IMG/VR virus record: IMGVR_UViG_2737471864_000007
Location: 1-18,204 of that record
Source: a virus
Taxonomy: Duplodnaviria; Heunggongvirae; Uroviricota; Caudoviricetes
Length of the DNA stretch: 18,204 nucleotides
Reading direction: 5' to 3' (one strand)
In this document: piece by piece, positions 1,447 to 17,389 of the stretch
Layout of the letters: each line of letters opens with the position of its first letter
Numbering within the stretch: position 1 is the stretch's first letter
Program-made: the position numbers and the translations under genes
Notes under the pieces: generated by a model
Seen by the model: the letters and a program-made list of their open reading frames with translations, nothing else
Databases searched by the model: none
Told to the model about the DNA's origin: nothing

Positions 1447-2429
1447 TGTTGACAATATCTCCAGACACAGAAAAATTGTTAACACTTAGTGCCCTTAAAG
1501 GAGTGGGTACTAAGTCGTTATCTAGTTTAGGCATGCTCAAAGACTTTTCTAGTTTATCTCTTGAGGAGTTGGTGAGATTATTGGGGGTTAAGGAATTAGC
1601 TTCCGATGATTTTTTAGTGGCTAGAGATTTCGCAAGAAAGAATATTGATATAGCTCATGCTAAAAATCATTCTATAATTTCATTTTTTGATGAATGTTAC
1701 CCTGATACATTAAAGGTTACTAGCGATAGACCTGCAATACTTTATTGTGCTGGTAACATTGATTGTCTGCGTAATAAATGTTTGGCGGTAATTGGTACCC
1801 GTGAACCCACTCTACATGGTGAAACGATTGCAAAAAATATCACCAAGTGGTTCACCAAAAAAGGTTGGACCATTGTAAGTGGCTTGGCTAAAGGTGTTGA
1901 TTCAATTGCTCATACCTCCGCTATTGAAAACCAAGGTAAAACAATAGCAGTCATGGCTCAGGGGTTGGAAAAAATTTATCCCAGAGAGAATAAAAAACTC
2001 GCAATGGATATTATTAGTACAGGAGGAGTATTAATTTCGGAATATGCCTATGGAAGTCATACATTTCGTAATAACTTTGTAGAGCGTGATAGAATACAGG
2101 CAGGATTATCAGCTGGGGTTTTAATGGTTCAATCTGACTTAAAAGGTGGTAGTCTGCATGCATCTCGCTCAGCAGTAAATTATGGAAGATATCTTGTTAT
2201 TCCCAATCAGTCCAGAAGAGATATTCTTAATAGCGAGCCTAAAATACAGGCTAATCTTGCATTTATGAGTGGTGATTATTATTTAATTAGATCATTATTG
2301 AAAGTTAATGGAGATATAAGTAAATCTTTAATAATTATGGAAAGCAGTAACGATTACCTTAAGGTTGAAGAGCAATTGTACGATGCCCTTCATTCATTAC
2401 ATAATCAGTATAATGGTTTTGATTTTTAA
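1446..2429 (+). CDS. shosA: DprA/Smf-like Rossmann-fold DNA-binding protein; candidate ShosA-like antitoxin/partner
   Basis: ATG at 1446 overlaps the upstream stop by 1 nt (TGATG); the ORF track starts at an in-frame GTG at 1443. DprA-like core AVIGTREPT...IVSGLAKGVDSIAHTSAI...TIAVMAQGLEKIYPREN...ISEYAYG...F..RDRIQAGLS...VLMVQSDLKGGSLHASRSA...GR.LVIP. N-terminal region is helix-hairpin-helix-like. AT-rich. Confidence 0.8.
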   Translation: MLTISPDTEKLLTLSALKGVGTKSLSSLGMLKDFSSLSLEELVRLLGVKELASDDFLVARDFARKNIDIAHAKNHSIISFFDECYPDTLKVTSDRPAILYCAGNIDCLRNKCLAVIGTREPTLHGETIAKNITKWFTKKGWTIVSGLAKGVDSIAHTSAIENQGKTIAVMAQGLEKIYPRENKKLAMDIISTGGVLISEYAYGSHTFRNNFVERDRIQAGLSAGVLMVQSDLKGGSLHASRSAVNYGRYLVIPNQSRRDILNSEPKIQANLAFMSGDYYLIRSLLKVNGDISKSLIIMESSNDYLKVEEQLYDALHSLHNQYNGFDF

Positions 2430-2494
2430 GATAATTATATTGGGTTAGTTGTTAATGACACATTAATACTCCTTTTTCTTCGGTAGCCTCCTTT

Positions 2495-3622
2495 TTAGAA
2501 GGTTACCGTTATCCAATTTTTACCTCGATCATCTCGATATTTAGCTGTCTGGTTTAGAGACTTGTGGCCAAGCAATTTCTGAGTATCAATACCTTGACCT
2601 CCGTAGAGACGTTCGGACAAGGAACGTTGTTCGTGGAATGTCGCTGGAGTACCATCACCCCAATCAATTCCTGCTAAATCTCTCGCTTTACTAAAATTCA
2701 TCGTCAATGTATTGGCTGTAACCTGCGCGCCACGTTCAGCCTGTGAAGTAGTACGAAAAAAATGTACAAGGTATGGGCTGACTACATAGTCACGACAGCG
2801 GGCTACTACATCGCGCAAACTCCAGTTGATCGCATTGAGACGCAGGGAAAGCGGGATGGCGATTTTGCTACCGGTTTTTTCCTGGATGACATGGAGATGA
2901 TCATCCCAAATATCGCTAAATTTCATACGCGAGATATCACCTAACCTCTGGCCGGTAACCAGTGCTAACAGCATGGCATTCCCCATATAACGATGACTGG
3001 CATCTGCGATATCAAAGATTTTTTGCCATTCTTCAAGACTTAACCGTTGTCGGGTAATTTTTCTTCTGGGCTGTTTGGTCGCTAATGCTGGATTATAGCC
3101 TGGAGGGACTTCCCCGTAGTGTTGTGCCTCCTTGAATACATCAATTAGAACGGAGCGGACTACTTGCGCCATCCTCGGTTGCCCAGCAGTGATATACTCG
3201 TCAAGCAATTGTGCGATATCCCTTACATCAACGGATGAAATTAACTTCATTCCTGCTCGCTCCCTGAGCAAGGACACTGGTTTAGCTTTCTGTTTATAGG
3301 TGTTGAGCTTTATATCACCACTTTTCAGTCTGTCATCCTGGATTGCTTGATAGCGATCTAACCAGGTTGATGTTGTGATTGCTTTTCCTTTGCTGGTTGC
3401 GATCCTGTCACTGATAGCCAGAATCTGCCGGGTTCTTTGCTCAGCCAGGCGTGTATTGGCCTCAGTGGCAATAGCAATGGCTTCCGCTTCGTTTGTGCCC
3501 AAAGAATGGAACTTCCCGGTCACTGGATGCTTATATCGCCAATAGACTTTATTTACTTTTCTGCTATAAAGCGGATACAAGTTCGGGACTGAAACATTAT
3601 TTTTACGTGGTCTGGCTGCCAT
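2495..3622 (-). CDS. int: Tyrosine site-specific integrase, lambda Int family
   Basis: 375 aa. N-terminal arm-binding-like region and C-terminal catalytic region ending HEQRSLSERLYGGQGIDTQKLLGHKSLNQTAKYRDDRG, closely resembling the lambda Int C-terminus including the catalytic Tyr context. Overlaps xis at its 5' end as in lambda. Confidence 0.9.
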   Translation of the reverse strand: MAARPRKNNVSVPNLYPLYSRKVNKVYWRYKHPVTGKFHSLGTNEAEAIAIATEANTRLAEQRTRQILAISDRIATSKGKAITTSTWLDRYQAIQDDRLKSGDIKLNTYKQKAKPVSLLRERAGMKLISSVDVRDIAQLLDEYITAGQPRMAQVVRSVLIDVFKEAQHYGEVPPGYNPALATKQPRRKITRQRLSLEEWQKIFDIADASHRYMGNAMLLALVTGQRLGDISRMKFSDIWDDHLHVIQEKTGSKIAIPLSLRLNAINWSLRDVVARCRDYVVSPYLVHFFRTTSQAERGAQVTANTLTMNFSKARDLAGIDWGDGTPATFHEQRSLSERLYGGQGIDTQKLLGHKSLNQTAKYRDDRGKNWITVTF

Positions 3623-3848
3623 TACTTAAAATCCTCTGTAGAATAATGGAATCACTTTTCTTGATGACAGGAGTAACTAACTCCCCAACTAACTCTGCGT
3701 CCTCACGCACTCGCCATAGTCGACCTTGTTTCATTGCCGGTGGACAAAATAAATTCTGCTTAGCATAACGACGCAATGTGGACACACTTGGAGGATTACT
3801 CCTAAATTTTTCCGCAGCCCATTCCTCAAGTGTCAGCATTTGAAGCAT
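3603..3848 (-). CDS. xis: Excisionase (Xis, lambda-like)
   Basis: LTLEEWAAEKF...VSTLRRYAKQNLFCPPAMKQGRLWRV parallels lambda Xis (LTLQEWNARQ...TVRRWVRE..IFPPPVKDGREY). Start taken at the ATG at 3848 (GAGGT about 10 nt upstream); alternative in-frame starts at 3863 and 3839. Overlaps int start. Confidence 0.75.
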   Translation of the reverse strand: MLQMLTLEEWAAEKFRSNPPSVSTLRRYAKQNLFCPPAMKQGRLWRVREDAELVGELVTPVIKKSDSIILQRILSNGSQTT

Positions 3849-3903
3849 TTTTGATAACCTCATTTCTTTTGCTACACAACTATTTCACTAGTTAATTTCG
3901 CTG

Positions 3904-4440
3904 TCAGGATTGCTTATGTATCTTATGCAGCTCTTTAAAACGTTCCATAAACATCCCGTAGGCATGGCCCGGAGCCAGTGGAATAACTTTGAATATCTCT
4001 GTTGCCGGGATACCTTCCAGTACTGGCCAGAAAGAGCCATCATCAAGCCCGAGATCGCGGCGTTCGGTTGCCAACATGATGAGATCGGCATATTTCACAG
4101 GTGTACTCATAACCGGGGGTAACCCGTATTTCTCACGGATTACGGCGTCTATTTTTTCTTCCATCCGTTTATAGTCGGGAAGAAGGTGTTTCAGTGGTGC
4201 GGGGATGTCCTGACAATATGCTTCTGTTGCATCATGCATTAACGCTTCAAAAGCAAATTCCTGCGGTACCAGCTGGCTGCAAAGCACCGCATGTTGGGCG
4301 ACGCTGTAGAAGTGTGAAAGATGTCCTGCAAAGCGACAGATATTTGAAAGGGAAACCGCGATATCGTTAATAACGATGTCGTCTTTATTTATCTTGTCAT
4401 AATAAAAATGCTTCCCGGAAAAAGTTTTAATAAATGACAT
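3904..4440 (-). CDS. yfdR: HD-domain phosphohydrolase, YfdR-like (prophage CPS-53/KplE1 family)
   Basis: 178 aa from the ATG at 4440 (GGAGA 6 nt upstream); the track's longer form uses an upstream GTG. HD-type H..HD metal-binding context (ALMHDATEAY). Identity to E. coli K-12 YfdR is from recollection of sequence, size and gene order; needs BLASTP. Confidence 0.75.
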   Translation of the reverse strand: MSFIKTFSGKHFYYDKINKDDIVINDIAVSLSNICRFAGHLSHFYSVAQHAVLCSQLVPQEFAFEALMHDATEAYCQDIPAPLKHLLPDYKRMEEKIDAVIREKYGLPPVMSTPVKYADLIMLATERRDLGLDDGSFWPVLEGIPATEIFKVIPLAPGHAYGMFMERFKELHKIHKQS

Positions 4441-4567
4441 TTTGTTCTCCACGTATATGCGCTGCACCGCGCTGAATTTTGGTTAAAGAAAACCCTCGCC
4501 ATCAGGTGATTATTGAGTCAATTATGTTTCCATAAATGCCCCCGCAGGGGCATTTGCAGTAATGAAA

Positions 4568-5392
4568 TCAGGCGTTGAAAGTACCAATAAAGGTTTTTAC
4601 TTTGCTGTCTTTGAATTTTTCAACTAGCAGATCACGAAATTCGTTAGCCATTTCTTCCTGTACTGCTTCCAGCTGAATAATGCGCTGAACCAGTACAGGG
4701 CGATCACCAGTGATAATGCTGAGTCGTAATTTAAACGGACGTTCTTTCAGGCCTTCAAACGGAACGCATTTAAATTCAAATGCCACTGGCATAATGTCTT
4801 TGGTCTTCGCTTCGACAGACTCCATCAGGGAGCGTTTGCCGCTGAAGTCATTGTCTTCAAAATCAGCAGTCTGGTTCGCTTCAATTGTGATTTTACGGAT
4901 CGCTGCAGCCGCTTTGGTTGCCTGAATGGCGTCACCATTAGCATCAAAGCCCACAAGGTAGTCTGCCCAGTCTTCAATCCATTCTGCCAGTGACTTCTGG
5001 GAGTTACGTTCGCCGTTAACAGACAACAGAGCAGAGAACGGGGCTGTCTTTTTCAGTTTGAGAGTGGCGGTGTTATCTGCGTGACCTGGTTCATCAATAG
5101 TACCCAGGTTAAGTACACTGACGGCACGCATATTATCAGCATCGATAAAGCAGCCGGTGCCTTTATCTGCAAGATCTTTAGAATAACGGGTAAAGTCATC
5201 GATGTTGGCAGTGGAAAGCGCACCACGGAAACGGAAGCGATTTAAATTAAATTTTTCCAGATCATGAATGCGGAAATTCTCAGGCAATGCTACAGCATCG
5301 GCACCAATCTTATTGATAATTTCATTAACACCCTGAGCAGAAATAAGGGCATGGATTTGATTAATTGCGGTTGCGTCTAAGTTCTGAGACAT
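4568..5392 (-). CDS. yfdQ: YfdQ-like protein (DUF2303 family), function unknown
   Basis: 274 aa, ATG at 5392 with GAGGA 8 nt upstream. Size and position between yfdP-like and yfdR-like genes match the K-12 CPS-53 order as I recall it; needs BLASTP. Confidence 0.75.
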
Positions 5393-5457
5393 AATAAGTC
5401 CTCACTATATAAAGATATTCAGTGATGAGATAAATAATCAGTTTATTAATAACGATA

Positions 5458-5820
5458 TTAACGACCTGCTGCGCGGAGTTTTCCGTCAGGCTCACCGGCA
5501 AGAGTCAGTAATTGTCCCTGGTCTTCCTGCAGAATAGTCAGGCGACCACCGCGATTGACATACATCGGCGTTTCTGTGGTGTCTTCTTCGGAAATTTTCC
5601 CGCGGTTAGTCGGGCGAACATATGAGAGTTTGTGTTTGATTTTCACACGGTTCTCATCAAATGGTTCGATTTCCAGGTTGAGTGAGACCTTACCTTTGGT
5701 TTTCGTGTTCATCACACCGGAAGCGACTTCACTGAGAACTGCGCCGATTTTGGTTTCAAATACGCCGCCGTCCAGCTCCCCGATAAATGCCTGCACATCA
5801 GTACTGCGTTCGCTAGCCAT
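5458..5820 (-). CDS. yfdP: YfdP-like hypothetical protein
   Basis: 120 aa starting MASERSTDVQAFIGELDGG at the ATG at 5820, with AGGAG 8 nt upstream. The track's 226-aa form extends into the GC-rich ORF-free segment with an Arg/Cys/Pro-rich, non-protein-like translation, so the extension is rejected. Confidence 0.65.
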   Translation of the reverse strand: MASERSTDVQAFIGELDGGVFETKIGAVLSEVASGVMNTKTKGKVSLNLEIEPFDENRVKIKHKLSYVRPTNRGKISEEDTTETPMYVNRGGRLTILQEDQGQLLTLAGEPDGKLRAAGR

Positions 5821-5870
5821 TTTGCTGCTCCTCATCATATCGACCCTGCAAGGCCGATTAGTTTCTCCAC

Positions 5871-6074
5871 AAAACAGAGAAGAACACCTGCGGTGGCAGC
5901 CGCCCGGATGGATTGAGTTATGAGCCCGTCGTCCGGTGATGTTCTTCTCTGTTTTGTAAAAAGGACGGTACCAGCCGGAAGCAAGGGTACAAGCTGGTAC
6001 CGCCAGGACTACACACAGCATAAAGTTGTGGTGCCGGGTGCCTCCCGGTGCCTGGCGAAGGTTGCACACCAGGC
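5871..6074. other. GC-rich ORF-free segment with multiple perfect inverted repeats; candidate structured RNA or MITE-like element
   Basis: 16-bp perfect inverted repeat AAAACAGAGAAGAACA (5871-5886) / TGTTCTTCTCTGTTTT (5940-5955) around a 53-nt GC-rich spacer. 9-bp perfect stem GGTACCAGC (5967-5975) / GCTGGTACC (5993-6001). 6-bp stem GCCTGG (6050-6055) / CCAGGC (6069-6074). No convincing ORF in any frame. Confidence 0.3.
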
Positions 6075-6219
6075 GGGTGGGTATCCACAGAAGGTCGACT
6101 GTCAGCCTCAACCTTAACCCGCGTGCGCTGAGCCGCATTCACCACAACGCTAAGGATTCTCTCTGGTTGAAAATACTTAGCTGTTATGTGCCTGCTTTTA
6201 GCCACATCAGGCGAGGTGG

Positions 6220-6272
6220 ATCTGGTTATTCCCCAACAATAAGGATTCGGTTAATCTGGTTATCCCCAACAA
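6220..6272 (+). repeat. Two direct repeats ATCTGGTTAT(T)CCCCAACAA, 34 bp apart, just upstream of the ORF at 6289
   Basis: Copies at 6220-6239 and 6254-6272. The associated motif TAAGGATTC also occurs twice (6151-6159, 6240-6248), and CTGGTTGA at 6163-6170 is a partial third copy. Confidence 0.6.
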
Positions 6273-6288
6273 CGCAAAAGGAAAAGAA

Positions 6289-6723
6289 ATGTCCGGTAAT
6301 ATCTATACGCTGTACAAATCCCACTGTGAAAATGTTGGAAAGTATCGGGGCATTGAAATCAGTGGGGTAGTGTCATCAGTCGAAATAAGCAAAGTTGAAT
6401 CAAGAGCAACATTACTTACTCTTCTGGACCTTGTCTTACATGAGCACCGGAAGAAATTCGGCACTCCCTATAATCAGTTGAATGGGAAAAAGGCTCTGGT
6501 TCACCTTATTCTGATGAAGCATCACTGGATGCCAAAACAGATTAATGAGATGAAATTTGATGAACTTCTTCTTTCAATTCAGGATGAACTCACGCTTGAT
6601 AAAATAAGCGTAACCGCCCAGAAATTTTTAGATTATCGAGACTGGAGATCACAAATTCATCACTTTGATGATTTTGACGAAAATGAATGGGATCCTAATT
6701 TGTCTGCACAATATCTAAAGTAG
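6289..6723 (+). CDS. Hypothetical protein, 144 aa, acidic C-terminus; AT-rich gene oriented against the leftward early operon
   Basis: ATG at 6289 with AAGGA 7 nt upstream. Protein-like translation with no recognisable motif. 3' end overlaps the convergent small ORF 6695-6901 by 29 nt. Confidence 0.6.
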   Translation: MSGNIYTLYKSHCENVGKYRGIEISGVVSSVEISKVESRATLLTLLDLVLHEHRKKFGTPYNQLNGKKALVHLILMKHHWMPKQINEMKFDELLLSIQDELTLDKISVTAQKFLDYRDWRSQIHHFDDFDENEWDPNLSAQYLK

Positions 6724-6901
6724 CATCCTGTGATAAAACTGTGATTTCCTGATCCAGTTTTTTTAAGGAGCCTATTGTTTCCTGTCGATAAGACAGCACT
6801 TCACGAAGCTGGTTTATAGCTGCCAGCTTCTTTGTCATCCACTCGTAAATTTCCTCATCTGTGTAGCCAGGCGCGACGATTTTTGGTTCTGTTTTGTGCA
6901 T
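6695..6901 (-). CDS. Small hypothetical protein, 68 aa; first gene of the putative leftward (pL-like) operon
   Basis: ATG at 6901 preceded by a strong GAGGAGGTG Shine-Dalgarno 5-6 nt upstream; the track's longer form starts at a TTG. Helical-looking, not Arg-rich, so not an obvious N homolog. Confidence 0.55.
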   Translation of the reverse strand: MHKTEPKIVAPGYTDEEIYEWMTKKLAAINQLREVLSYRQETIGSLKKLDQEITVLSQDATLDIVQTN

Positions 6902-6947
6902 TTCACACCTCCTCAAGTTATCAGTTACTTGTTGATGGGGACCAGAT

Positions 6948-6959
6948 TGTTAAAGAGCT
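6948..6959 (-). promoter_or_regulatory. boxA-like element GCTCTTTAACAA; candidate antitermination (nut-like) site on the leftward transcript
   Basis: Minus-strand 12-mer matches the rrn/lambdoid boxA consensus TGCTCTTTAACAA at 12 of 13 positions. Lies between the OL-like block and the first leftward ORF. No convincing boxB hairpin identified. Confidence 0.4.
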
Positions 6960-6960
6960 A

Positions 6961-6984
6961 AGCGTCCTGTAGGGCGCTTTTTTG
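6961..6984 (+). terminator. Rho-independent terminator (plus strand)
   Basis: AGCGTCC-TGTA-GGGCGCT stem (7 bp, one G-U pair) followed by TTTTTT. The same hairpin on the minus strand has a C-A mismatch and no U-tract, so it is directional. Confidence 0.55.
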
Positions 6985-7058
6985 TTGCTAACGAATCATC
7001 CTGGACTTCATATGCCCCAGGCGGCTACTTCGTGGGCGTCCTGCCTGTTCGTTGTTTT

Positions 7059-7120
7059 AACACCTTTAAGTTGTAATTTAGTTGTGGCTTTGAATATTGT
7101 CAACAACTTTATGTGGTTTG
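7059..7120. promoter_or_regulatory. OL-like operator/promoter region
   Basis: Block AACACCTTTAAGTTGTAATTTAGTTGTGG (7059-7087) plus ACAACTTTATGT (7104-7115). Both recur in the cI-cro intergenic region; contains AAGTTGT/ACAACTT inverted half-sites. Confidence 0.5.
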
Positions 7121-7166
7121 AACGAGTAGCCAAGGAGTGCAAGGATTATCAAAAAAAGGAGGTTGT

Positions 7167-8057
7167 ATGGAAGACGCGCTTTACGCTTTTAATTACACAC
7201 AGAACCGGGACAAGTTATTTGCTAACTTGATTAGCATCATTGATGGAATCATTGCAGATGGAGTTGTCCGTGAAGAGGAGGTTCTTTACTTAGATACATG
7301 GTTACTTGAAGCAAAGCAGATTATCAATAATGGAGTTATAAAAAGTCTATCAGCACGGGTGTCGGATATTCTTGCGGATGGAATAATCACATCAGAAGAA
7401 CGTGATGACCTTAAAAATAGCCTTCTCCAAATACAGAGGGAAATTCTTGATATCCCTGAAATTGATTTTTACTCCAAGGATGTAGATGTCCATTTACTTA
7501 ATGGACTATGTAAAGGATTAATTGCTGATCGGAACTTAACTCAAGAAGAAATAAGATATCTTAATTGGTGGCTTGAGCAAAATGGAGCTTTGAAGAACAA
7601 CTACCCAGGAAAAAAACTTTATGCACTTGTAAAGGAAATTCTTAAAGATGGGGTTATTACTGAAGATGAGAGTTTAACTCTACATAAGGCATTAGTAGAC
7701 TTCACAGGATGTGACTTGGAAAGTGGGGTGGTGGATGGTTTGGCGACCAGGCTGCCTATTGATGTAGGGGCTTCGATAGAGTTAGAGGGTAAAACCTATT
7801 GTCTTACAGGCACTTTTGTTGCAGGAAAGAGAGCCGTAGTTGAAAATTTGATTAAAAATGCTGGTGGGAACATCAGTAGTGGAATTACTCAAAAGTTGGA
7901 TTTTTTAGTAATTGGGACGCTTTCCTCCCGTGATTGGAAATTCTCAAGTCACGGAAGGAAGATCGAAAAAGCTATATCTTATAGGGATGATAATGGTGCA
8001 AAACTTAAAATTATTTCTGAAGAAATGCTTTTCGATGCATTACCAAGTTCGCGATGA
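7167..8057 (+). CDS. TerB-like helical-repeat protein with C-terminal BRCT domain; AT-rich cargo gene between OL and cI
   Basis: ATG at 7167 with AGGAGG 4 nt upstream; the track's form starts at a GTG at 7137. Four repeats of the pattern (A/K)DG.I(T/R).EE...L (IADGVVREEEVLYL, LADGIITSEERDDL, IADRNLTQEEIRYL, LKDGVITEDESLTL). C-terminal GKTYCLTGTF...GGNISSGITQKLDFLVIG...GRKIEKA...GAKLKIISEEMLFDAL resembles the LigA-type BRCT fold. Convergent 18-nt overlap with the cI 3' end. Confidence 0.75.
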   Translation: MEDALYAFNYTQNRDKLFANLISIIDGIIADGVVREEEVLYLDTWLLEAKQIINNGVIKSLSARVSDILADGIITSEERDDLKNSLLQIQREILDIPEIDFYSKDVDVHLLNGLCKGLIADRNLTQEEIRYLNWWLEQNGALKNNYPGKKLYALVKEILKDGVITEDESLTLHKALVDFTGCDLESGVVDGLATRLPIDVGASIELEGKTYCLTGTFVAGKRAVVENLIKNAGGNISSGITQKLDFLVIGTLSSRDWKFSSHGRKIEKAISYRDDNGAKLKIISEEMLFDALPSSR

Positions 8058-8726
8058 CCAGAATACCCTACCTATAACATGAATTCTGGCTCGTCTATCT
8101 TCAAAGGTGAGTATTTCATCTGGGTACTCATCTTTGTTGAAGCTTCTAAGAATCAAGCCACCGTCAGGTAAGTTGATAAGTATTTTAACCCTTAGCAATA
8201 CACCATCTCGTACGGCATAAAGATCGCCATCACGAATAGGAACGGTTTGAGAAATATCAACGGCAACAAGATCTCCATTATTGAGAACCGGTAATAAACT
8301 GTTCCCCCATATTTTTACGATCTTGGCATTAGATGCACATACGCCAGATTTTCTCAAATCTGCTCTTCTTAACGGAAACCAGTCAATAGCTGATTCAACT
8401 ATTTCAGCCAGACATCCGTTACCTGCCGATAACTCGACATCTAAAACAGGAATGTTTACGAAAATATCGGGGTCTAATGCGGTGCTTTCTGCTTCTTTTA
8501 CAACAAGATCAGGTATGGATGCGTTATCTTCAATACCAAGTTGTAACCACTTTTGTGATACACCTAAAACTTTTGCAATTTCTTTAATTTTGCGCGGTTG
8601 TAGAGTTTCGCCATTCTCTATTTTGGCTACAGATTGTTGTGAAAGTCCAATTTTTTCAGCTAGTTGAGCTTGGCTCATGCCAGCTTTCTCTCTACCTATC
8701 TTTAATCGTTCTGCCAGTGTTTTCAC
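8040..8726 (-). CDS. cI: CI-like prophage repressor (XRE-type HTH + LexA/S24 peptidase-like autocleavage domain)
   Basis: 228 aa. N-terminal HTH (LAERLKIGREKAGMSQAQLAEKIGLSQQSVAKIENGE) and C-terminal S24-like region (GNSLLP...). GTG start at 8726 with a GAGAGGGA SD-like sequence. Divergent from cro. Confidence 0.85.
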   Translation of the reverse strand: MKTLAERLKIGREKAGMSQAQLAEKIGLSQQSVAKIENGETLQPRKIKEIAKVLGVSQKWLQLGIEDNASIPDLVVKEAESTALDPDIFVNIPVLDVELSAGNGCLAEIVESAIDWFPLRRADLRKSGVCASNAKIVKIWGNSLLPVLNNGDLVAVDISQTVPIRDGDLYAVRDGVLLRVKILINLPDGGLILRSFNKDEYPDEILTFEDRRARIHVIGRVFWSSRTW

Positions 8727-8755
8727 AACATATCCCTCTCTTTTTTGATGAGGTT

Positions 8756-8850
8756 ACAACTTTATGTTTTAGCTTTCCAACACCTAAAAGTTGTGATAAA
8801 AGTTGTTAATGTTGTATTCTTGCAACTCGTAACAACTTAACTACCAAAAA
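8756..8850. promoter_or_regulatory. OR-like operator/promoter region between cI and cro
   Basis: ACAACTTTATGT (8756-8767) and block AACACCTAAAAGTTGTGATAAAAGTTGT (8779-8806) match the OL-like region; a further ACAACTT at 8832-8838. Divergent cI and cro starts flank it. Confidence 0.55.
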
Positions 8851-8861
8851 AGGAGAAAGCT

Positions 8862-9110
8862 ATGACACCTGAGCAATTAGCCTTATCGGAGGCAATCGCT
8901 CTGGCTGGTGGTCAATCAGAATTGGCTCGGAAGCTCACAGCCAGCAGCGGTCATTTAGTAAAGCAACAACATGTCTGGAACTGGTTGAACAGAGAAAAGC
9001 GTCCCCCTGCAAAGCTCTCGATATTCATTGAAAAGACCACTGGCATATCAAAAGAAAAATTACGTCCAGATATTTTTCAAAAGATTAAAGATTCATCAGC
9101 TGAAAAGTAA
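8862..9110 (+). CDS. cro: Cro-like HTH regulator (YdaS/Cro family)
   Basis: 82 aa, ATG at 8862 with AAGGAG upstream. HTH-like GGQSELARKLTASSGHLVKQQ. Position immediately right of OR and divergent from cI. Confidence 0.75.
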   Translation: MTPEQLALSEAIALAGGQSELARKLTASSGHLVKQQHVWNWLNREKRPPAKLSIFIEKTTGISKEKLRPDIFQKIKDSSAEK

Positions 9111-9132
9111 CCACAGTTTTAAGGAGATAGCC

Positions 9133-9690
9133 GTGGGTAAGCATCACTGGAAAATAGAAAAACAGCCTGAGTGGTACGTGAAAGCTGTCAGAAAAACTAT
9201 CGCGGCGTTGCCGGGTGGTTACGCTGAAGCCGCTGACTGGCTGGATGTAACAGAGAACGCTTTATTCAACCGCCTTCGTGCAGATGGCGATCAGATTTTT
9301 CCGCTGGGATGGGCAATGGTTTTACAGCGTGCTGGTGGCACTCACTTCATTGCTGATGCTGTGGCGCAGTCTGCAAATGGCGTATTTGTGTCTCTTCCTG
9401 ACGTCGAGGATGTGGACAACGCCGATATTAACCAGCGTCTGCTGGAAGTCATTGAACAGATCGGCAGTTATTCAAAACAGATTCGTTCAGCAATCGAAGA
9501 CGGTGTAGTGGAACCGCATGAGAAGACAGCAATTAACGACGAGCTGTATCTCTCAATTTCGAAGCTGCAGGAGCATGCAGCACTGGTCTACAAAATCTTT
9601 TGCATTTCAGAAAGTAATGACGCCCGCGAGTGTGCAGCTCCGGGCGTCGTGGCGTCGATTGCTTCTGGTTGTGGAGAAACTAACGCATGA
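9133..9690 (+). CDS. CII-like regulatory protein (YdaT-like family)
   Basis: 185 aa from the GTG at 9133 (AAGGAG 6 nt upstream). The track's longer form starts inside cro and is rejected. Position after cro matches the Rac-type racR/ydaS/ydaT arrangement as I recall it; family assignment tentative. Confidence 0.6.
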
Positions 9691-10025
9691 ACAGTTTAAC
9701 AACACACTACCGTCGCTCGCAACTGATTGCGCTTCCTGTACCGGGTGGAAAAGCGAAGGTGGAATATTGCTATGCAGTGAATGTACCAGGTGACAGGGAA
9801 ATTGTAACCCACAGCTTTGCAGAGTGGGCTGTGGGTGATTTCAACCGGCAGAAGGAGACAGTCCTTTGCGACAAGTTAACCGCTGGTTCAAAGATCACTA
9901 CGGAGTGCCCGTCAGAGTCATTCGTTGGGAGCCGGAAACACAACGGGTTATCTACCTCCGCGAAGGTTATGAGCATGAATGCTTCAGTCCGCTCGAACAG
10001 TTTCGTCGTAAATTCAGGGAAATAG
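9687..10025 (+). CDS. Hypothetical protein; possibly frameshifted or overlapped by an alternative-frame ORF (9866-10045)
   Basis: ATG overlaps the cII-like stop (ATGA). The C-terminal third of the translation looks non-protein-like, while a second frame (TTG at 9866 after AGGAG, stop at 10043-10045) reads ...[58 protein letters not shown]. Confidence 0.35.
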
Positions 10026-10034
10026 AGGTCGGTC

Positions 10035-10304
10035 ATGAGCACTAAATTAACCGGCTATGTATGGGATGGTTGCGCTGTATCAGGCATGAAGTTATCCAGT
10101 GTGGCAATTATGGCCCGCCTGGCTGATTTCAGTAATGACGAAGGTGTGTGCTGGCCATCAATTGAAACCATTGCCCGTCAGATTGGCGCGGGGATGAGTA
10201 CCGTCAGAACGGCTACCGTGGCATTTGAAGAGAAGTATGGCTCCCAGCTGGAGCTGATATTTCGTTTTATCGATCGTGCGCTGGCAATAGGCGTACTGGC
10301 GTAA
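10035..10304 (+). CDS. Short HTH protein resembling the N-terminal domain of phage/plasmid replication initiators (HTH_36-like); probable remnant of the replication module
   Basis: 89 aa. KLSSVAIMARLADFSNDEGVCWPSIETIARQIGAGMSTVRTA matches the typical pattern of this winged-helix class (...ALADHANDDG.CWPS.ETLA...G.S.RTV.RA). Ends directly before the Q-like gene. Confidence 0.55.
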   Translation: MSTKLTGYVWDGCAVSGMKLSSVAIMARLADFSNDEGVCWPSIETIARQIGAGMSTVRTATVAFEEKYGSQLELIFRFIDRALAIGVLA

Positions 10305-10317
10305 GTGGAGACGCAAA

Positions 10318-10896
10318 ATGATTAATCCTTCCGAAGTTGGTAAATCCGGGGAAATGGCACGACTACGTACACTGGAAAGTGTATGGATACAGGGCAAACT
10401 GCGTATGTGGGGGCGCTGGTCATTCATCGGCGGCGGCTCAGGCGGCAATATGTTTAACCAGTTGCTGGCCTCCGGGAAAATCACCAAGACAGCCATCAAT
10501 GACGCTTTACGTCGCATGAAGAAGTCAGGCCTGACAAAACCAGAGCTCGAAGCGTTCTTTCGTGAAATTATCGATGGCAAAAATAAGACAGGCATTTCGT
10601 TCTGCTCAGATGATGAGGGTGTATGCATTGATGGCGTTATCGCGGCTGTGCTGATCTCAAATGGTCATAACGGATTGTTTGATGTGCTACTGGACAGATA
10701 CCGCTATCGCAAGAGCAAACGTCTCATGGCAGAGCAACTTCAAAAGCGCCATCCAGAATGGTGCTACATGACCTGCCGCCGCCGAATTGATTCCTGGCTA
10801 AGTTTGGCAGAATTCATGCTTTACGCACCAATGTGTGATGCATTCGGCACAAATAGCAGCAGATTTAAGTTGCAATGTGAGCCAGGAGGTGCTTAA
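10318..10896 (+). CDS. Putative late-gene antiterminator (Q-like) with Cys pairs
   Basis: 192 aa. Position immediately upstream of a terminator and the lysis cassette. Two Cys pairs (CSDDEGVC, CYMTC) are compatible with a zinc-binding Q-type protein. Assigned by position and architecture, not by recognised homology. Confidence 0.5.
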   Translation: MINPSEVGKSGEMARLRTLESVWIQGKLRMWGRWSFIGGGSGGNMFNQLLASGKITKTAINDALRRMKKSGLTKPELEAFFREIIDGKNKTGISFCSDDEGVCIDGVIAAVLISNGHNGLFDVLLDRYRYRKSKRLMAEQLQKRHPEWCYMTCRRRIDSWLSLAEFMLYAPMCDAFGTNSSRFKLQCEPGGA

Positions 10897-10946
10897 ATTG
10901 TGTTACGCTCGGGACGCAAAAGCGAACAGAGCAACAAACATTAAGA

Positions 10947-10970
10947 ACCCGCCAGCGTGCGGGTTTTTTG
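10947..10970 (+). terminator. Rho-independent terminator downstream of the Q-like gene (tR'-like)
   Basis: ACCCGC-CAGCGT-GCGGGT stem followed by TTTTTT. Confidence 0.6.
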
Positions 10971-11009
10971 TTATCATTACCTTTTAAACTTCTAATGGAA
11001 GGTAATGAT

Positions 11010-11582
11010 ATGTGGTTAGGGATTCCTTTTATCTATGTTCAGGAACGGCTGGCAGACACAATTAGCATCAGTAAAATACCATCTATTTCTATAGAATCTT
11101 CATTCTCCTCCGAAACGATTATAGCCGCATTTATTAGTGGATTGGTTCCAGCACTGATATCTTTGTATGTGATTAGACAAAATAACGAGTCTGTCCGATA
11201 TCAACAAAAGCAAGAGAATAAAAGACATTATTCTGCGCATTTAAGGGTGGTAGTTAGCGAGTATGCATACCAACTTAATAAAGTTAAAGAGATACATGCC
11301 GAATGGGTTTCTGTTAGCACAACAATGATCCAATATAAGCTAACAAGCTTAGAAGAAAAAATGTCTGAGGCTCTATTAGAACTGGAAAGATTTAAAGTTA
11401 GCTTGTTAATTTCTATTCCTGATGATGAAGATGGTGCATTGTTTAAGAAATCAATAAATACCATCTCAGAAAAGCTATCTTCATTAATTAAGGGGAGGCA
11501 TATATCAATGGTTGATGGAATGGGATGGGCTGGCCTTTATATGTCATTCATTTCAGATGCTAATAAGTATCTAAATAAATAA
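11010..11582 (+). CDS. AT-rich moron: membrane-anchored helical protein, function unknown
   Basis: ATG at 11010 with GGAAGG about 7 nt upstream; alternative in-frame ATG at 10995; the track's form uses a TTG at 10968 inside the terminator. One predicted TM helix (IIAAFISGLVPALISLYVI) followed by a charged helical region. Flanked by terminators on both sides. Confidence 0.6.
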   Translation: MWLGIPFIYVQERLADTISISKIPSISIESSFSSETIIAAFISGLVPALISLYVIRQNNESVRYQQKQENKRHYSAHLRVVVSEYAYQLNKVKEIHAEWVSVSTTMIQYKLTSLEEKMSEALLELERFKVSLLISIPDDEDGALFKKSINTISEKLSSLIKGRHISMVDGMGWAGLYMSFISDANKYLNK

Positions 11583-11604
11583 AATATATTTTATTAAAAT
11601 ATCA

Positions 11605-11633
11605 AAAGCCACTTAATTGTGGCTTTTTGTTTT
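11605..11633 (+). terminator. Rho-independent terminator downstream of the moron
   Basis: AGCCAC-TTAATT-GTGGCT stem followed by TTTTT G TTTT. Confidence 0.6.
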
Positions 11634-11674
11634 CCCTCTTTTTGAGAGGACTCACAGCAATAAGAGGGGGCTAA

Positions 11675-12070
11675 ATGTCCGATCCTGTTTCTGGCACTAC
11701 GGTTGCCGCTGGTGGCCTTATGGGAGCCAGTGTTTTTGGTATCGCAACTGGTATTGATTATGGCGTGGTGTTTGGCGCTTTCGCAGGAGCTGTGTTCTAC
11801 GTAGCGACAGCAGCAAACATCAGTAGGATGAAGTTGGTTGGCTATTTCGTGACATCGTTTATTGTCGGCGTTCTTGGCGCTGGGCTTGTTGGTTCGTACC
11901 TTGCCAAATGGACAGGCTACAGCGACAGGCCACTTGATGCTCTCGGCGCAGTGGCAGTAGCTGCGTTGGCCATCAAACTTCTTACCTTCATCAACAGTCA
12001 GGATCTAGGAAGCCTGTTCAGTATGCTTTCGCGATTGCGTGGAGGAGGGACCAGCAATGGTAACAAGTGA
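11675..12070 (+). CDS. Putative holin (multi-TM small membrane protein)
   Basis: 131 aa, Gly/Ala-rich hydrophobic segments consistent with 3-4 TM helices. AAGAGGGGG SD upstream. First gene of the lysis cassette. Confidence 0.65.
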   Translation: MSDPVSGTTVAAGGLMGASVFGIATGIDYGVVFGAFAGAVFYVATAANISRMKLVGYFVTSFIVGVLGAGLVGSYLAKWTGYSDRPLDALGAVAVAALAIKLLTFINSQDLGSLFSMLSRLRGGGTSNGNK

Positions 12071-12338
12071 TCCTTCAGCGATGATCAATGCGGGTATTTG
12101 CGCGGTCATTGTAATTGCTCTGATGTTTTACCAACGTGGCGGTGCCAGACATCGCCCGATAGTTTCTCTTCTCGCTTATTTCACGGTGCTGGTTTATGCC
12201 AGCATCCCGTTCCGCTATCTGTTCGGCCTCTACCAGGAATCACACTGGCTGGTGGTCATCGTTAACATCCTGATATGCGCCGCCGTGCTATGGGCTCGGG
12301 GAAACGTGGCGCGTCTTATTGATGCTCTGAGGCACTAA
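12057..12338 (+). CDS. Second lysis-cassette membrane protein (holin/antiholin-like)
   Basis: About 93 aa from the ATG at 12057 (GGAGGAGGGA SD 6 nt upstream); the track's form starts at a GTG at 12039. Three hydrophobic segments. Overlaps the holin stop and the endolysin start. Confidence 0.55.
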   Translation: MVTSDPSAMINAGICAVIVIALMFYQRGGARHRPIVSLLAYFTVLVYASIPFRYLFGLYQESHWLVVIVNILICAAVLWARGNVARLIDALRH

Positions 12339-12952
12339 TGAACCAATCACAATTTCAACAGGCGGCTGTTATTAGCGCCGGGTTAGCTGCGCGCTGGTTT
12401 CCGCACATTGATGCGGCGATGAAGGAATTCGGCATTACAGCACCAGCGGATCAGGCAATGTTTATCGCTCAGGTAGGCCATGAGTCGATGGGGTTTAGCG
12501 CCGTAGTTGAAAATTTTAACTACACACCATCTGCGCTGGTGGCGACGTTCGGAAAGAGGATCACACAGCAGCAGGCTGATGCCCTTGGCAGAACATCCGG
12601 ACATGCAGCTCGTCAGGATGCTATTGCCAATCTGGTGTATAGCAACCGACTGGGTAACAAAGCACCCGGTGATGGCTGGAAATATCGTGGTAGAGGATTA
12701 ATTCAAATCACTGGCCTCCATAATTATCGCATCTGTGGCGCGGAGCTGAAGTTAGATCTGGTGACTTCACCTGAACAACTTGAACAGGAACTACAGGCCG
12801 CGCGCTCAGCTGCATGGTTCTACACCTCTAAAGGCTGCATGATCTACGGTGCCGATATTAATCGTGTTACGCGTATCATTAACGGCGGTCTGAACGGTAT
12901 TGAGGATCGTAAAGTCCGATACAACAAGGCGCGGGCGGCGCTGCTGGTATGA
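12338..12952 (+). CDS. Endolysin, glycoside hydrolase family 19 (chitinase-like lysozyme)
   Basis: 204 aa. GH19-type motifs FIAQVGHESMGF...NF.Y...YRGRGLIQITGLHNY. Start overlaps the upstream stop (TAATG). Confidence 0.8.
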   Translation: MNQSQFQQAAVISAGLAARWFPHIDAAMKEFGITAPADQAMFIAQVGHESMGFSAVVENFNYTPSALVATFGKRITQQQADALGRTSGHAARQDAIANLVYSNRLGNKAPGDGWKYRGRGLIQITGLHNYRICGAELKLDLVTSPEQLEQELQAARSAAWFYTSKGCMIYGADINRVTRIINGGLNGIEDRKVRYNKARAALLV

Positions 12953-13341
12953 AGATGAGTTATTGGGCGCTCATTTTAACGTTTATTGCTTGTGTTGCTG
13001 GTGGTCTTGTCTGGTCAGCGAATCACTATCATGGAAAGTTTCTGGAGGAGCAGAAGCGTGCTGACGCTGCGGAACAGCGAGCTGATTCTACTGAAGCTAT
13101 CACCGCGAATGTCCTGCGAACTATGGCAATAACGAACATCATTCAGGAGGCGAATCAACATGCAAAACAGCAGATCGCACTGGAGTCACAGAGAACCCAG
13201 GAAGATATCAAAGTGGCTATTGCGAATGATGATTGCGCTTCACGTCCTGTGCCTGCTACCGCTGCTGACCGGTTGCGGAAGTACGCGGACAGTTTACGTG
13301 AGCGATCCGGTGGCACCCCTGCCAGCCAGCCTGACTTCTGA
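12949..13341 (+). CDS. Rz-like inner-membrane spanin (i-spanin)
   Basis: 130 aa. N-terminal TM (WALILTFIACVAGGLVW) followed by a charged coiled-coil-like region. Start overlaps the endolysin stop (ATGA). Confidence 0.7.
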   Translation: MKMSYWALILTFIACVAGGLVWSANHYHGKFLEEQKRADAAEQRADSTEAITANVLRTMAITNIIQEANQHAKQQIALESQRTQEDIKVAIANDDCASRPVPATAADRLRKYADSLRERSGGTPASQPDF

Positions 13342-13498
13342 TACTCCAGTACCGTTTATACCCAATCCGCTGACGTATGGTACCAGTCTGGAGTTGAATG
13401 TTGCTCTATTGTCAGCCTTGGGACAATGTAATTTTGATAAAACTGGAATCAGAAATATTGAATCACGGCGCGCTATTTTGCATTCGAAAGACAAATAG
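13226..13498 (+). CDS. Rz1-like outer-membrane lipoprotein spanin (o-spanin), overlapping the 3' part of the Rz-like gene in another frame
   Basis: Lipobox LLTGC after a short signal peptide (MMIALHVLCLLPLLTGC). Pro-rich mature region. Starts inside the Rz-like gene and extends past its stop. Exact start (13226 or 13229) uncertain. Confidence 0.6.
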   Translation: MMIALHVLCLLPLLTGCGSTRTVYVSDPVAPLPASLTSDTPVPFIPNPLTYGTSLELNVALLSALGQCNFDKTGIRNIESRRAILHSKDK

Positions 13499-13866
13499 CT
13501 CGAGTTATATTTTTCATTATCGTTGCGAATGCTCCTAATAAAGCTGTGTATTATGGTAATTTTATAAAGCCTATGGGTTTAAGTTCAGATGCTAGCGTTT
13601 TTATAGCGTAATGTAGCAGCTTACATAAAATATGCATCGTGATTAACTATTAGGCCAACCTTTTGGACCAATATGAAAGTGGAAGTTTATACAAATCGTT
13701 TGTCGATGATTAAACATGTGTCTAGTAGCGCTAGTCATGAACAGGTTTATTACGTATCATTTTGTGTAGATTATCGAGAGTACAACTAGTAGAGCAGCTA
13801 ATCTTTAGATAGTGCCAGTGATGTTCACTTGCGATAAACTAACCTTTTCATTCAGTGGAGGTTATT

Positions 13867-14301
13867 ATGTGGCATACATTACTTAACTGGCCTTGGGGAA
13901 CTGTGTGGTCAGCTGTATCGGCTTTAGGTTCAATTGTAACTGTTACATTAGGTTTTTGGGCAATGAATGTTTGGCGGCGACAGGAGGCTCTGAAGGCCAA
14001 AATGGCTCTGAAAATGGCAGTGGCTGATTATTCAAATGCATTATCACAACTACCTTTATCTCTTAGTCGTAATGTTCGTATTGAAAAAAGGGCCGAGCTA
14101 CGAGAGTTAAATCATAAATTAAATGCTGTTAATAATGCTTTTTTGATATGCGAACATATGTTGGAAAAATACCCACGTGTAAACAGCGGTTGTCGTTCTT
14201 TATCTGTTGCCCACAAAGAATATATTAGAATGAGAGATAATAGTATTCAGGCGAAACATATTTGTCATAATATTCTTTCAGAGCAGTTTGTATTCAAATG
14301 A
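13867..14301 (+). CDS. AT-rich moron: membrane-anchored helical protein, function unknown
   Basis: About 144 aa from the ATG at 13867 (GGAGG 6 nt upstream). N-terminal TM (WSAVSALGSIVTVTLGFWAMNVW) then a helical, Lys/Arg-rich region. Preceded by about 360 bp of AT-rich non-coding DNA. Confidence 0.55.
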   Translation: MWHTLLNWPWGTVWSAVSALGSIVTVTLGFWAMNVWRRQEALKAKMALKMAVADYSNALSQLPLSLSRNVRIEKRAELRELNHKLNAVNNAFLICEHMLEKYPRVNSGCRSLSVAHKEYIRMRDNSIQAKHICHNILSEQFVFK

Positions 14302-14428
14302 AAATGAACGATTGGTATTTACTTGCCGTTTATTCATTGGATTGAAAAGTCTATTTAACAAACCGTGTTAAAGCGGTTTCTGATTGCAGTTATGGTTAGA
14401 TATTTAACGAAAACTACAGGGATAATAG

Positions 14429-14779
14429 ATGCCTCCACGAACCCCAAAAGCCTGCCGCGTTCGCGGCTGCCGCCATACCACGACTGACCCGTCAGGCTAT
14501 TGCGAAAGCCACAAAAGCGAAGGCTGGAAGCAATATAAGCCAGGCCAGTCCCGACACCAGCGCGGTTATGGTTCTAAGTGGGACGTTATCCGCGCGCGTG
14601 TGCTGAAGCGTGACAAAGGCCTGTGCCAGTTGTGCCTGCGTGCCGGTGTGGTGCGCGAGGCGAAAACCGTTGACCACATCATCCCTAAAGCGCATGGCGG
14701 CTCTGATGCCGACAGTAATCTGCAGAGTCTGTGCTGGCTGTGTCATAAGGCGAAGACGGCCCGTGAACGGCTGAAGTAA
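14429..14779 (+). CDS. HNH endonuclease (phage terminase-associated)
   Basis: 116 aa. Cys pairs (CRVRGC...C.SH) and the HNH core DHIIPKAHGGSDADSNLQSLCWLCH. Located immediately upstream of terS, as in HK97-like cos phages. Confidence 0.85.
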   Translation: MPPRTPKACRVRGCRHTTTDPSGYCESHKSEGWKQYKPGQSRHQRGYGSKWDVIRARVLKRDKGLCQLCLRAGVVREAKTVDHIIPKAHGGSDADSNLQSLCWLCHKAKTARERLK

Positions 14780-14805
14780 GAACCAGTTCCCACTGCCAGA
14801 GGGGA

Positions 14806-14866
14806 GGGGCGGGTCAAATCCCTGTGACCTGACGTCTTCCGGACTGCCCGCCCCATCGTTTTTTTA
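14806..14866 (+). other. GC-rich long-range stem plus T-tract between HNH and terS; candidate cos-region element or terminator
   Basis: GGGGCGGG (14806-14813) pairs with CCCGCCCC (14847-14854), followed by ATCG and a run of seven T. Confidence 0.3.
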
Positions 14867-14904
14867 TACCCGCGAAAAATGAAATTTAACCAGGAGTGCC
14901 GCAT

Positions 14905-15399
14905 ATGGCTGGAACGGCGGGGCGTTCCGGGCGTCGCCCCAAGCCAACGGCGCGCAAGGCGCTGGCCGGAAACCCCGGCAAGCGAGCCCTGAATAAAGAT
15001 GAACCTGTTTTTACGCCCATCAAAGGTGTTGAGCCACCGGAGTGGTTCGCTGAAGAAGATCTCCCTCTCGCCACGATCATGTGGCAACTGACAACCAAAG
15101 AACTCTGCGGTCAGGGCCTGCTGTGCGTGACTGACCTCGCGGTGCTTGAGCGGTGGTGCGTGGCCTACGAGTTCTGGCGACGTGCCGTGAAAAATATTGC
15201 CAGACAGGGCAACACCATCACCGGTGCAATGGGCGGTATGGTCAAAAATCCGGAGCTGACCGCCAAAAAAGAACAGGAGTCCGAGATGAGCAGTACGGGG
15301 GCAATGCTCGGACTCGACCCCAGCAGCCGCCAGCGTCTGATTGGCCTGGCGGGGAAGAAGAAAGCCACTAACCCGTTTCTGAAAATTATCGAATCATGA
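14905..15399 (+). CDS. terS: Terminase small subunit (P27-like family)
   Basis: About 164 aa from the ATG at 14905 (CAGGAG upstream); the track's form starts at a GTG at 14896. Basic N-terminus. Stop overlaps the terL start (ATGA). Confidence 0.75.
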
Positions 15400-17129: not shown

Positions 17130-17140
17130 CTGAGGTAATT

Positions 17141-17323
17141 ATGATCATGCTGATTCTCGCGCCTCTGGTGGGCGTGCTGGGTGCGCTTTTGCTGGCGTAT
17201 GGTGCCTGGCTGATTTATCCCCCGGCGGGTTTTGTTGTTGCCGGGGCGCTGTGCCTGTTCTGGTCGTGGCTGGTGGCGCGATATCTCGACCGTACACAGT
17301 CGTCTGTCGGCGGAGGTAAATAG
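17141..17323 (+). CDS. Small two-TM membrane protein, hypothetical
   Basis: 60 aa. GAGGT SD 4 nt upstream of the ATG. Two hydrophobic helices. Sits at the apparent junction between the terminase and tail genes. Confidence 0.45.
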
Positions 17324-17389
17324 TGTTCTTTTCGGGATTATTTCAACGAAAAAGTGACGCACCGGTGACCACGCCAGCAGAGCTGGCGG

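Follow-up and report, generated by a model that had tools for sequence, protein, structure and literature searches.

Probable operators for a 434-like CI repressor at both early promoters (left and right) in an Escherichia coli lambdoid prophage

The window analyzed here is the whole of a stretch of 18,204 nt, positions 1 to 18,204 of IMG/VR virus record IMGVR_UViG_2737471864_000007. This 18.2-kb stretch is an E. coli e14/SfV-type lambdoid prophage. Our subject is a set of short repeated sites on both sides of its repressor gene, cI, and the regulatory switch that these sites likely serve. cI (8040–8726, minus strand) encodes a protein of 228 residues with an HTH_3 domain (1.4e-15) and a Peptidase_S24 domain (6e-15; both Pfam). 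As in other lambdoid CI/Cro pairs, cI is divergent from a cro-like gene (8862–9110, plus strand), the 82-residue product of which belongs to the YdaS/Cro family (Pfam PF15943, 7.8e-15). Downstream of cro lies ymfL (9133–9690, plus strand), a CII-like gene of the Phage_CP76/CII family. On the other side, a gene at 7167–8057 (plus strand) is convergent with cI and overlaps it by 18 bp (8040–8057; 9–18 bp in relatives). Its 296-residue product has a Pfam BRCT domain and falls in phrog_3989, of unknown function. The initial annotation, made by a model from the sequence alone, took this to be a TerB/BRCT gene; the BRCT assignment stands, but no TerB family is found at E ≤ 0.001. The first leftward gene, at 6695–6916 (minus strand), encodes 68–73 amino acid residues and belongs to phrog_1744.

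Two intergenic segments, 7040–7166 upstream of the BRCT gene and 8727–8861 between cI and cro, share repeated sequences. A 27-nt block, AACACCTTTAAGTTGTAATTTAGTTGT, at 7059–7085, recurs at 8779–8806 as AACACCTAAAAGTTGTGATAAAAGTTGT, which at 28 nt has one additional base between its two AGTTGT motifs. The 12-mer ACAACTTTATGT is found at 7103–7114 and again at 8756–8767. A repeat search recovers both pairs, the block over 19 nt at 84% identity and the 12-mer over 12 nt at 100%. The initial annotation had reported both repeats, and both can be read directly, though with corrected coordinates: the left block ends at 7085 rather than 7087, and the left 12-mer occupies 7103–7114 rather than 7104–7115. 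The consensus it gave for the block describes the first copy, whereas the second fits only with a 1-nt insertion. The half-sites that it noted, AAGTTGT and ACAACTT, are indeed present in both orientations in both regions. Block and 12-mer are not, as had been supposed, two distinct elements. Both are copies of one 15-bp dyad, ACA(A/C)C-N5-G(T/G)TGT, and the block consists of a dyad followed, 11–12 bp downstream, by a lone additional half-site.

There are, then, two dyads in each region, which we call OL (left operator) and OR (right operator). In OL, OLa (7060–7074) reads ACACC TTTAA GTTGT, with one mismatch to ACAAC-N5-GTTGT, and OLb (7103–7117) reads ACAAC TTTAT GTGGT. In OR, ORa (8756–8770) reads ACAAC TTTAT GTTTT, and ORb (8780–8794) reads ACACC TAAAA GTTGT. 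That the copies seem direct and not inverted is due only to the near-palindromic nature of the sites; as the sites are dyads, strand orientation is immaterial. The swapped order of the elements, which had been called unusual, is not so. Going outward from either lytic promoter, a block-type site comes first (OLa at pL, ORb at pR) and a 12-mer-type site second (OLb and ORa, respectively), which is the classical mirror-image arrangement OL1-2-3 … OR3-2-1.

The sites are not readily ascribed to chance. The initial annotation had proposed a motif scan of the window and of related prophages. In the window, ACAAC-N5-GTTGT at no more than one mismatch occurs five times versus 0.69 expected, a count reached in 0 of 200 shuffles, and four of the five matches fall in the two regulatory gaps. 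Seven of the window's 17 copies of AGTTGT/ACAACT lie within the 262 bp of the two intergenic segments; shuffling expects 9.3 copies window-wide. The repeats themselves were assessed with 2000 dinucleotide shuffles of the two segments. An exact match of at least 12 nt arose in 7 shuffles, a match of at least 16/19 in 11, and both together in 2. The fifth dyad-like site, ACAGCATAAAGTTGT, at 6015–6029 (one mismatch), is inside a leftward open reading frame (5458–6138), some 1 kb to the left of OL. It has no counterpart in relatives, the left arms of which differ, and is treated as a probable chance match, the other reading being an auxiliary operator. Readings of the repeats as IHF-type sites or as λ CII-type sites (TTGC-N6-TTGC) were set aside: the motifs misfit by eye, and the half-site equals that of the dyads. 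A full-text literature search for the half-site in the context of repressors and operators returned unrelated primer matches only.

The dyads are closely interleaved with predicted promoters. The early-left promoter, pL (7075–7103, minus strand), has the −35 hexamer TTGACA (7103→7098), a 17-bp spacer and the −10 hexamer TAAATT (7080→7075), with a predicted start at about 7068. It is the sole 10/12 promoter match between 6600 and 9200 in a consensus scan. The other three are candidates, with weaker matches to consensus. The candidate pR (8791–8820, plus strand) has −35 TTGTGA (8791–8796), an 18-bp spacer, −10 TATTCT (8815–8820) and a predicted start at about 8827. The candidate pRM (8751–8779, minus strand) has −35 TGGAAA (8779→8774), a 17-bp spacer, −10 TAACCT (8756→8751) and a predicted start at about 8744; the predicted pRM and pR starts are thus about 83 bp apart. 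The candidate BRCT-gene promoter (7118–7146, plus strand) has −35 TTGAAC (7118–7123), a 17-bp spacer, an extended −10, TGc-AAGGAT (7138–7146), and a predicted start at about 7153. The left set sits where the promoters of the leftward early operon and of the rightward BRCT gene diverge from common ground, one of two arrangements offered in the initial annotation.

Relative to these promoters, the center of OLa is at about +2 of pL, and that of OLb is at about −42 with respect to pL and at about −43 with respect to the BRCT-gene promoter. ORa is centered at about −19 of pRM, over its core, at the position of λ OR3. ORb lies between two −35 hexamers, at about −43 of pRM and −40 of pR, at the position of λ OR2. 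Two properties of a lambdoid switch are present: dyad sites repeated in the cI–cro gap, where ORa and ORb overlap the candidate pRM and pR, and recurrence of these sites beyond cI, where OLa and OLb flank and overlap the early-left promoter pL.

Relatives of this immunity region were collected by two scans. Species genomes yielded four, with CI proteins 57–71% identical (one each from Proteus, Providencia, Serratia and a Pseudomonas-labelled contig); IMG/VR yielded another 80, with CI 61–100% identical. Seventeen loci were taken as representatives (Escherichia, Proteus, Providencia, Serratia, the Pseudomonas-labelled contig and IMG/VR contigs; CI 57–100% identical). The same OL and OR dyads recur across these 17: the matches at one mismatch or fewer are the same four sites plus sporadic extras. 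Two of the relatives with about 60% CI identity have three sites at this threshold, as ORa there carries two mismatches. The gaps between dyads are invariant among relatives, 28 bp from OLa to OLb and 9 bp from ORa to ORb.

When 41 unique OR and 46 unique OL sequences are aligned, sharp footprints emerge, in which the dyads, the lone half-sites and the promoter hexamers are near-invariant. The cI leader, the promoter spacers, the segment 8819–8831 and the cro leader vary freely. The pL hexamers and their 17-bp spacing are kept while the spacer sequence varies, and the BRCT-gene promoter is kept as TTGA(A/T)n and TG(C/T)AAGGAT at a fixed 17-bp distance, again with a freely variable spacer. The pRM hexamers and spacing are also kept; their match to consensus is weak, as expected for an activated promoter. 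The pR −10 is TATAAT in most relatives.

The variation that does occur within the dyads is informative. OLa varies only at the symmetric positions 4 and 12, reading ACACC..GTTGT or ACAAC..GGTGT by lineage. In about half of the relatives it is written the reverse way, ACAAC TTTAA GGTGT, that is, as the mirror image of ORb. Where CI identity is about 60%, the OLb dyad has become perfect in sequence, ACAAC TTTAT GTTGT. Variation at symmetric positions in OLa and the perfect OLb dyad are the behavior expected of a site for a two-fold symmetric protein.

These observations bear on a simpler explanation, namely that the two regions resemble each other through shared promoter sequence, A+T-rich composition or a recent duplication rather than through protein sites. 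The regions are A+T-rich with A-runs, shuffles do produce 12-mers at the rate given above, and the stretches between half-sites are conserved too. But both repeats jointly are rare in shuffles, the dyad is in clear excess over expectation, the sites persist at 57% CI identity while adjoining non-coding DNA is randomized, and the symmetric variation at positions 4 and 12 suits a dyad and not a promoter. This explanation is already largely refuted, and we hold it to be extremely unlikely.

The repressor itself accords with such sites. Among solved structures, the best sequence match to the N-terminal domain of CI is the 434 repressor (1PER/2OR1; E = 4.2e-13), with an ungapped alignment over 65 residues. 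434 Gln28-Gln29 align with CI Gln30-Gln31 in the segment SQQSVAK (434: TQQSIEQ); Arg43 is matched by Arg, and Gln33 is replaced by Lys. The window's CI thus has the two marks of a 434-type repressor, a homologous N-terminal domain and a recognition helix starting with Gln-Gln. In 434 complexes, the Gln-Gln pair reads the outer A-C-A of the half-site. Every relative that retains the half-site also retains the CI helix, (S/T)QQS(V/I)(A/Q)K, together with the helix VKQQ(H/Q)(V/I)WNW of Cro. That is, the sites and the recognition helix are conserved together at 57–100% CI identity, and both differ in relatives at 41–44% identity.

Those more distant relatives are the nearest repressors of isolated phages, from Stx1 phage SH2026Stx1 and Salmonella phage S.Kent 1-2-1 (CI 41–44% identical). 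They resemble the window in protein architecture, in the gene order cI-cro-cII and in the form of the half-site, ATAAC there and ACAAC here. They differ in having the helix SQPAIQK and three 14-bp OR dyads, ATAAC-N4-GTTAT, and in having no BRCT gene beside cI. A lone GGTTAT also stands right after the last OR dyad in both (L089 1900–2000 and L090 1900–2000), and half-sites beside dyads may be common in this repressor family.

The likeness to 434 has limits. In phage 434, OL and OR contain 14-bp dyads contacted over the outer 5+5 bp (PMC1636474). Like the 434 sites, those of the window start with ACA in each half-site, have an A+T-rich center and form operator sets at OL and OR (PMC1636474). 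They differ in that the site here is 15 bp, Gln33 is Lys, and each region has two full dyads plus lone half-sites where 434 has three sites of 14 bp; the partner Cro here is of the YdaS family and not of the 434-Cro type. All four dyads fit the 15-bp form ACAA-N7-TTGT. The 434-type 14-bp pattern, ACAA-N6-TTGT, has chance-level matches only in the window and none in the operator blocks. Its single match between pL and the BRCT start codon, at 7153–7166, is the ribosome-binding site.

To summarize, the initial annotation proposed that the repeats are the two operator sets of the CI-like repressor, and this proposal is very probably right: they flank cI, overlap predicted promoters, are conserved down to 57% CI identity and fit a 434-like half-site. 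We regard it as likely that the repeats are operators of a 434-like CI at the left and right early promoters, in an otherwise ordinary λ-style switch. The dyads are probably operators of Cro as well. The likeness to λ extends to the divergent cI and cro genes, the mirror-image OL and OR, OR dyads 24 bp apart center to center, and the S24 autocleavage domain. The differences are that there is no OR1-type dyad over the pR −10, that the OL dyads are 43 bp apart rather than 24, and that the operator sequence is unrelated.

The following model is suggested. A CI dimer would bind the 15-bp dyad with one helix-turn-helix on each ACA-type half-site. Each operator region would work as a divergent promoter pair, with one dyad between the −35 hexamers and the second over the core of the leftward promoter. 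In OL, OLa would cover the pL start; in OR, ORb would overlap the pR −35 and ORa would cover the pRM core. In the lysogen, CI bound at OLa and OLb, at ORb, and at lone half-sites over the pR spacer, −10 and start would keep pL and pR off. From ORb, centered near −43 of pRM, CI would stimulate transcription of its own gene in the manner of λ CI at OR2. ORa is the weakest dyad; it would serve negative autoregulation and would be the preferred target of Cro.

Several points weigh against this reading. The first concerns the number of dyads. λ and 434 place a third OR site over the pR −10 and start, and a third full site per region, including one over the lytic −10, might be expected here. The window has two dyads in each region, and no third full dyad over pR or pL is found at two mismatches or fewer; by eye, every register around 8796–8846 fails. 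The SH2026Stx1 and S.Kent 1-2-1 relatives carry a third OR dyad where the window has none. Repression of pR would thus depend on lone half-sites, there being no full dyad over its −10 or start. Second, given the 15-bp spacing versus 14 bp, the 434 structure is not simply transferable. Third, the candidate pR, pRM and BRCT-gene promoter fall below the promoter-scan threshold and were chosen with the aid of conservation; only pL passes. Fourth, all of 8754–8820 is conserved, beyond the half-sites, and therefore part of the footprint is promoter and not operator. Finally, sequence homology between the BRCT-gene promoter and pRM had been considered. After the operator they match in register at 26 of 52 positions in the window (p ~8e-4), but this similarity is not significant in most relatives, so only the shared geometry is claimed.

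The lone half-sites call for closer attention. In OL there is one, AGTTGT at 7080–7085, in the pL spacer beside the −10 (about −15 of pL). It is kept as TTTAGTTGT in 14 of the 16 representative relatives with an OL alignment; the Proteus-type loci L003 and L086 differ. In OR, two conserved direct repeats, AGTTGT at 8801–8806 and TGTTGT at 8810–8815, occupy the pR spacer and the edge of the pR −10, and they form no dyad at two mismatches or fewer. A further half-site, ACAACTT at 8832–8838, lies at about +6 to +12 of pR. Within it, CAACT (8833–8837) is 100% conserved, an island between unconserved flanks. In L003 and L086, this half-site is the left half of a full dyad, ACAAC TAGGG GGTGT, over the cro Shine-Dalgarno sequence about 120 nt upstream of the cI start (window-equivalent 8832–8846); the dyad may be an ancestral OR1 or a site that couples repression to translation.

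The candidates for binding the lone half-sites are CI, in a non-canonical or cooperative mode, and Cro. One proposal is that CI binds the four dyads only and that the lone half-sites serve another protein or geometry, most likely Cro-like, so that two codes overlap. The lone half-sites are conserved yet cannot be paired at the N5 spacing. In both regions they pair instead at two helical turns, 21–22 bp apart (7083/7105 and 8813/8834), and in the group with about 60% CI identity an opposite-polarity dyad, AAGTTGT-N3-5-ACAACTT, is present at the pR start. The Cro recognition helix also starts with Gln-Gln, is conserved across all relatives and could read the same ACA core. In λ, 434 and P22, on the other hand, and in characterized lambdoid switches generally, Cro and CI share operators. 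The resemblance of the window's Cro-like protein to the Xylella Cro structure 3BD1 is weak (E = 0.08), and the variable spacings of 4, 5 and 16 bp are hard to fit to a rigid dimer. We consider separate CI and Cro codes possible but doubtful.

Half-sites two turns apart also bring to mind the CII-like activator YmfL. Phage 186 CII binds inverted half-sites about 20 bp apart around the −35, YmfL belongs to the CP76/CII family, and pairs at 21–22 bp exist in both OL and OR. However, the DNA between the OR pair (8816–8831) is unconserved, no leftward −35 is conserved there, the half-site is the same as in the CI dyads and fits the CI helix, and CII-dependent promoters are normally downstream of cro and not in OR. 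YmfL is thus a very unlikely binder of these sites.

The BRCT gene may share in the regulation of the region through OLb, which abuts its candidate −35 (7117/7118). For ORb/pRM and OLb/BRCT-gene promoter alike, 31 bp separate the operator center from the start of the −10 hexamer downstream, a distance that is invariant in relatives, the promoters and starts in both cases being predicted. Because OLb would thus stand at about −43 of the BRCT-gene promoter, as ORb stands to pRM, the BRCT gene is probably expressed in the lysogen. Comparison with Vibrio phage K139 leads to the same expectation. K139 orf2 is homologous to the BRCT gene, with 32.6% identity across 95% of the query, and its annotation places it in a lysogenic operon, cI-orf2-glo-int, where the exclusion gene glo adjoins it (L091 1780–4808). 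In both phages the gene is directly beside the repressor gene. In K139, however, orf2 is co-directional and co-transcribed with cI, whereas here the two genes converge and overlap at the 3′ end of cI, and the BRCT gene has a candidate promoter of its own, flanked by an operator. The arrangement also differs from that of λ, where the accessory genes rexAB are co-transcribed from pRM. The linkage of a repressor gene to a BRCT gene spans very different phage types, the P2-like K139 and the present prophage. The K139 operon and the pRM-like geometry of OLb make lysogenic expression the most likely mode; CI would then activate the gene or, at a minimum, leave it unrepressed.

Activation of this promoter specifically by CI is conceivable, though we would not count on it. 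The opposing proposal is that the promoter is not CI-activated: it would be constitutive, or else repressed by CI at OLb and active early after induction, with OLb serving pL only. Repressors can occlude RNA polymerase from a site that abuts the −35, and the extended −10, TGnAAGGAT, could permit activator-independent initiation. Contrary to this are the identity of the OLb and ORb geometries, the membership of the K139 homologue in a lysogenic operon, and the placement of the BRCT gene inside the immunity region, facing away from the early operons, together with its divergence in parallel with that of cI. We think this proposal rather improbable. A broader version of the CI model, in which OLb doubles as an activator site driving a second lysogenic promoter built on the pRM plan and pR is controlled through lone half-sites instead of an OR1 dyad, is likewise put forward only tentatively and seems to us unlikely as a whole. 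If true, it would mean either that a 434-like repressor binds in a non-canonical mode or that Cro follows site rules of its own.

The close association of the BRCT gene with cI is a constant of the group. In all relatives, a convergent overlapping BRCT gene, or a decayed remnant of one, adjoins cI, and the CI and BRCT identities fall in step (93/92, 85/82, 80/74, 72/69 and 60/56%). In a lineage with 93% CI identity (L040 3200–3330; L035–L049 and L071), the BRCT gene is internally deleted, leaving the start and the last ~47 codons; OLa, OLb, the promoter and the ribosome-binding site are intact. No terminator is predicted between cI and the BRCT gene, and the two convergent transcripts should therefore run antisense into each other. 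The BRCT gene is a candidate for a superinfection-exclusion or defence function. PADLOC gives only a weak partial match to the candidate system PDC-S48 (2.4e-7), which is insufficient for calling it a defence gene, and a literature search on BRCT, prophage and defence found nothing relevant.

Regarding distribution, of 5426 complete E. coli genomes, 48 (about 1%) carry chromosomal prophage DNA that matches the segment 6900–9150 at 99–100% identity. In the single annotated example inspected, the prophage adjoins icd and carries intE/xisE and ymfL. This immunity was found in none of the isolated phages of the collection searched, the top CI match being 44.5% identical, and the window DNA that matches other phages in the searched region is only the leader left of 7062. 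The prophage thus represents an immunity group with an operator specificity that was previously uncharacterized; in type it is otherwise an ordinary λ-style switch, and conceptually a standard lambdoid one. With the operator sequence and promoter layout defined, immunity typing becomes possible for a group found in about 1% of complete E. coli genomes and in Proteus, Providencia and Serratia relatives. The system also offers a ready-made orthogonal repressor–operator pair, related to that of 434 but with a 15-bp site. One relative stands apart by its label: contig JAWQUI010000002.1 (L002; 760 kb), labelled Pseudomonas lundensis, has an enterobacterial-type immunity region with a CI of 71% identity, the same operators and the leader RNA described below. 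Horizontal transfer, mislabelling or contamination could account for it.

The pL transcript has features of its own. A structured RNA candidate of ~62 nt, CGAACAGGCAGGACGCCCACGAAGUAGCCGCCUGGGGCAUAUGAAGUCCAGGAUGAUUCG, lies about 12 nt into the predicted pL transcript, from 7056 to 6987 on the minus strand. It is predicted to form a closing stem and two hairpins, and four base pairs show compensatory changes among 12 variants. The RNA is present in 51 phage records, including SfV, SfII, SfIV, ST64B, ZF40, mEp237, mEp460 and SPN3UB, and is annotated in none. An Rfam scan of the entire window gave no family at threshold, and a covariance model of the leader RNA found no second copy in the window. 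The put antiterminator of HK022 is a structured RNA of ~70 nt just downstream of PL (PMC9378689), and the leader RNA resembles putL in its position after pL and in its size. Homology with put was rejected, as the covariance model matches nothing in HK022 26000–37000. The element could represent a new leader RNA that acts in cis or serves antitermination.

Next on the pL transcript, ahead of the first leftward gene, comes a G+C-rich hairpin at 6960–6979. In the plus-strand sense, AAGCGTCCTGTAGGGCGCTT and the TTTTTTG after it have the form of a clean intrinsic terminator; in the pL transcript the hairpin is without a good U-tract. The hairpin could block antisense or read-in transcription, or could be a terminator that the leader RNA overrides.

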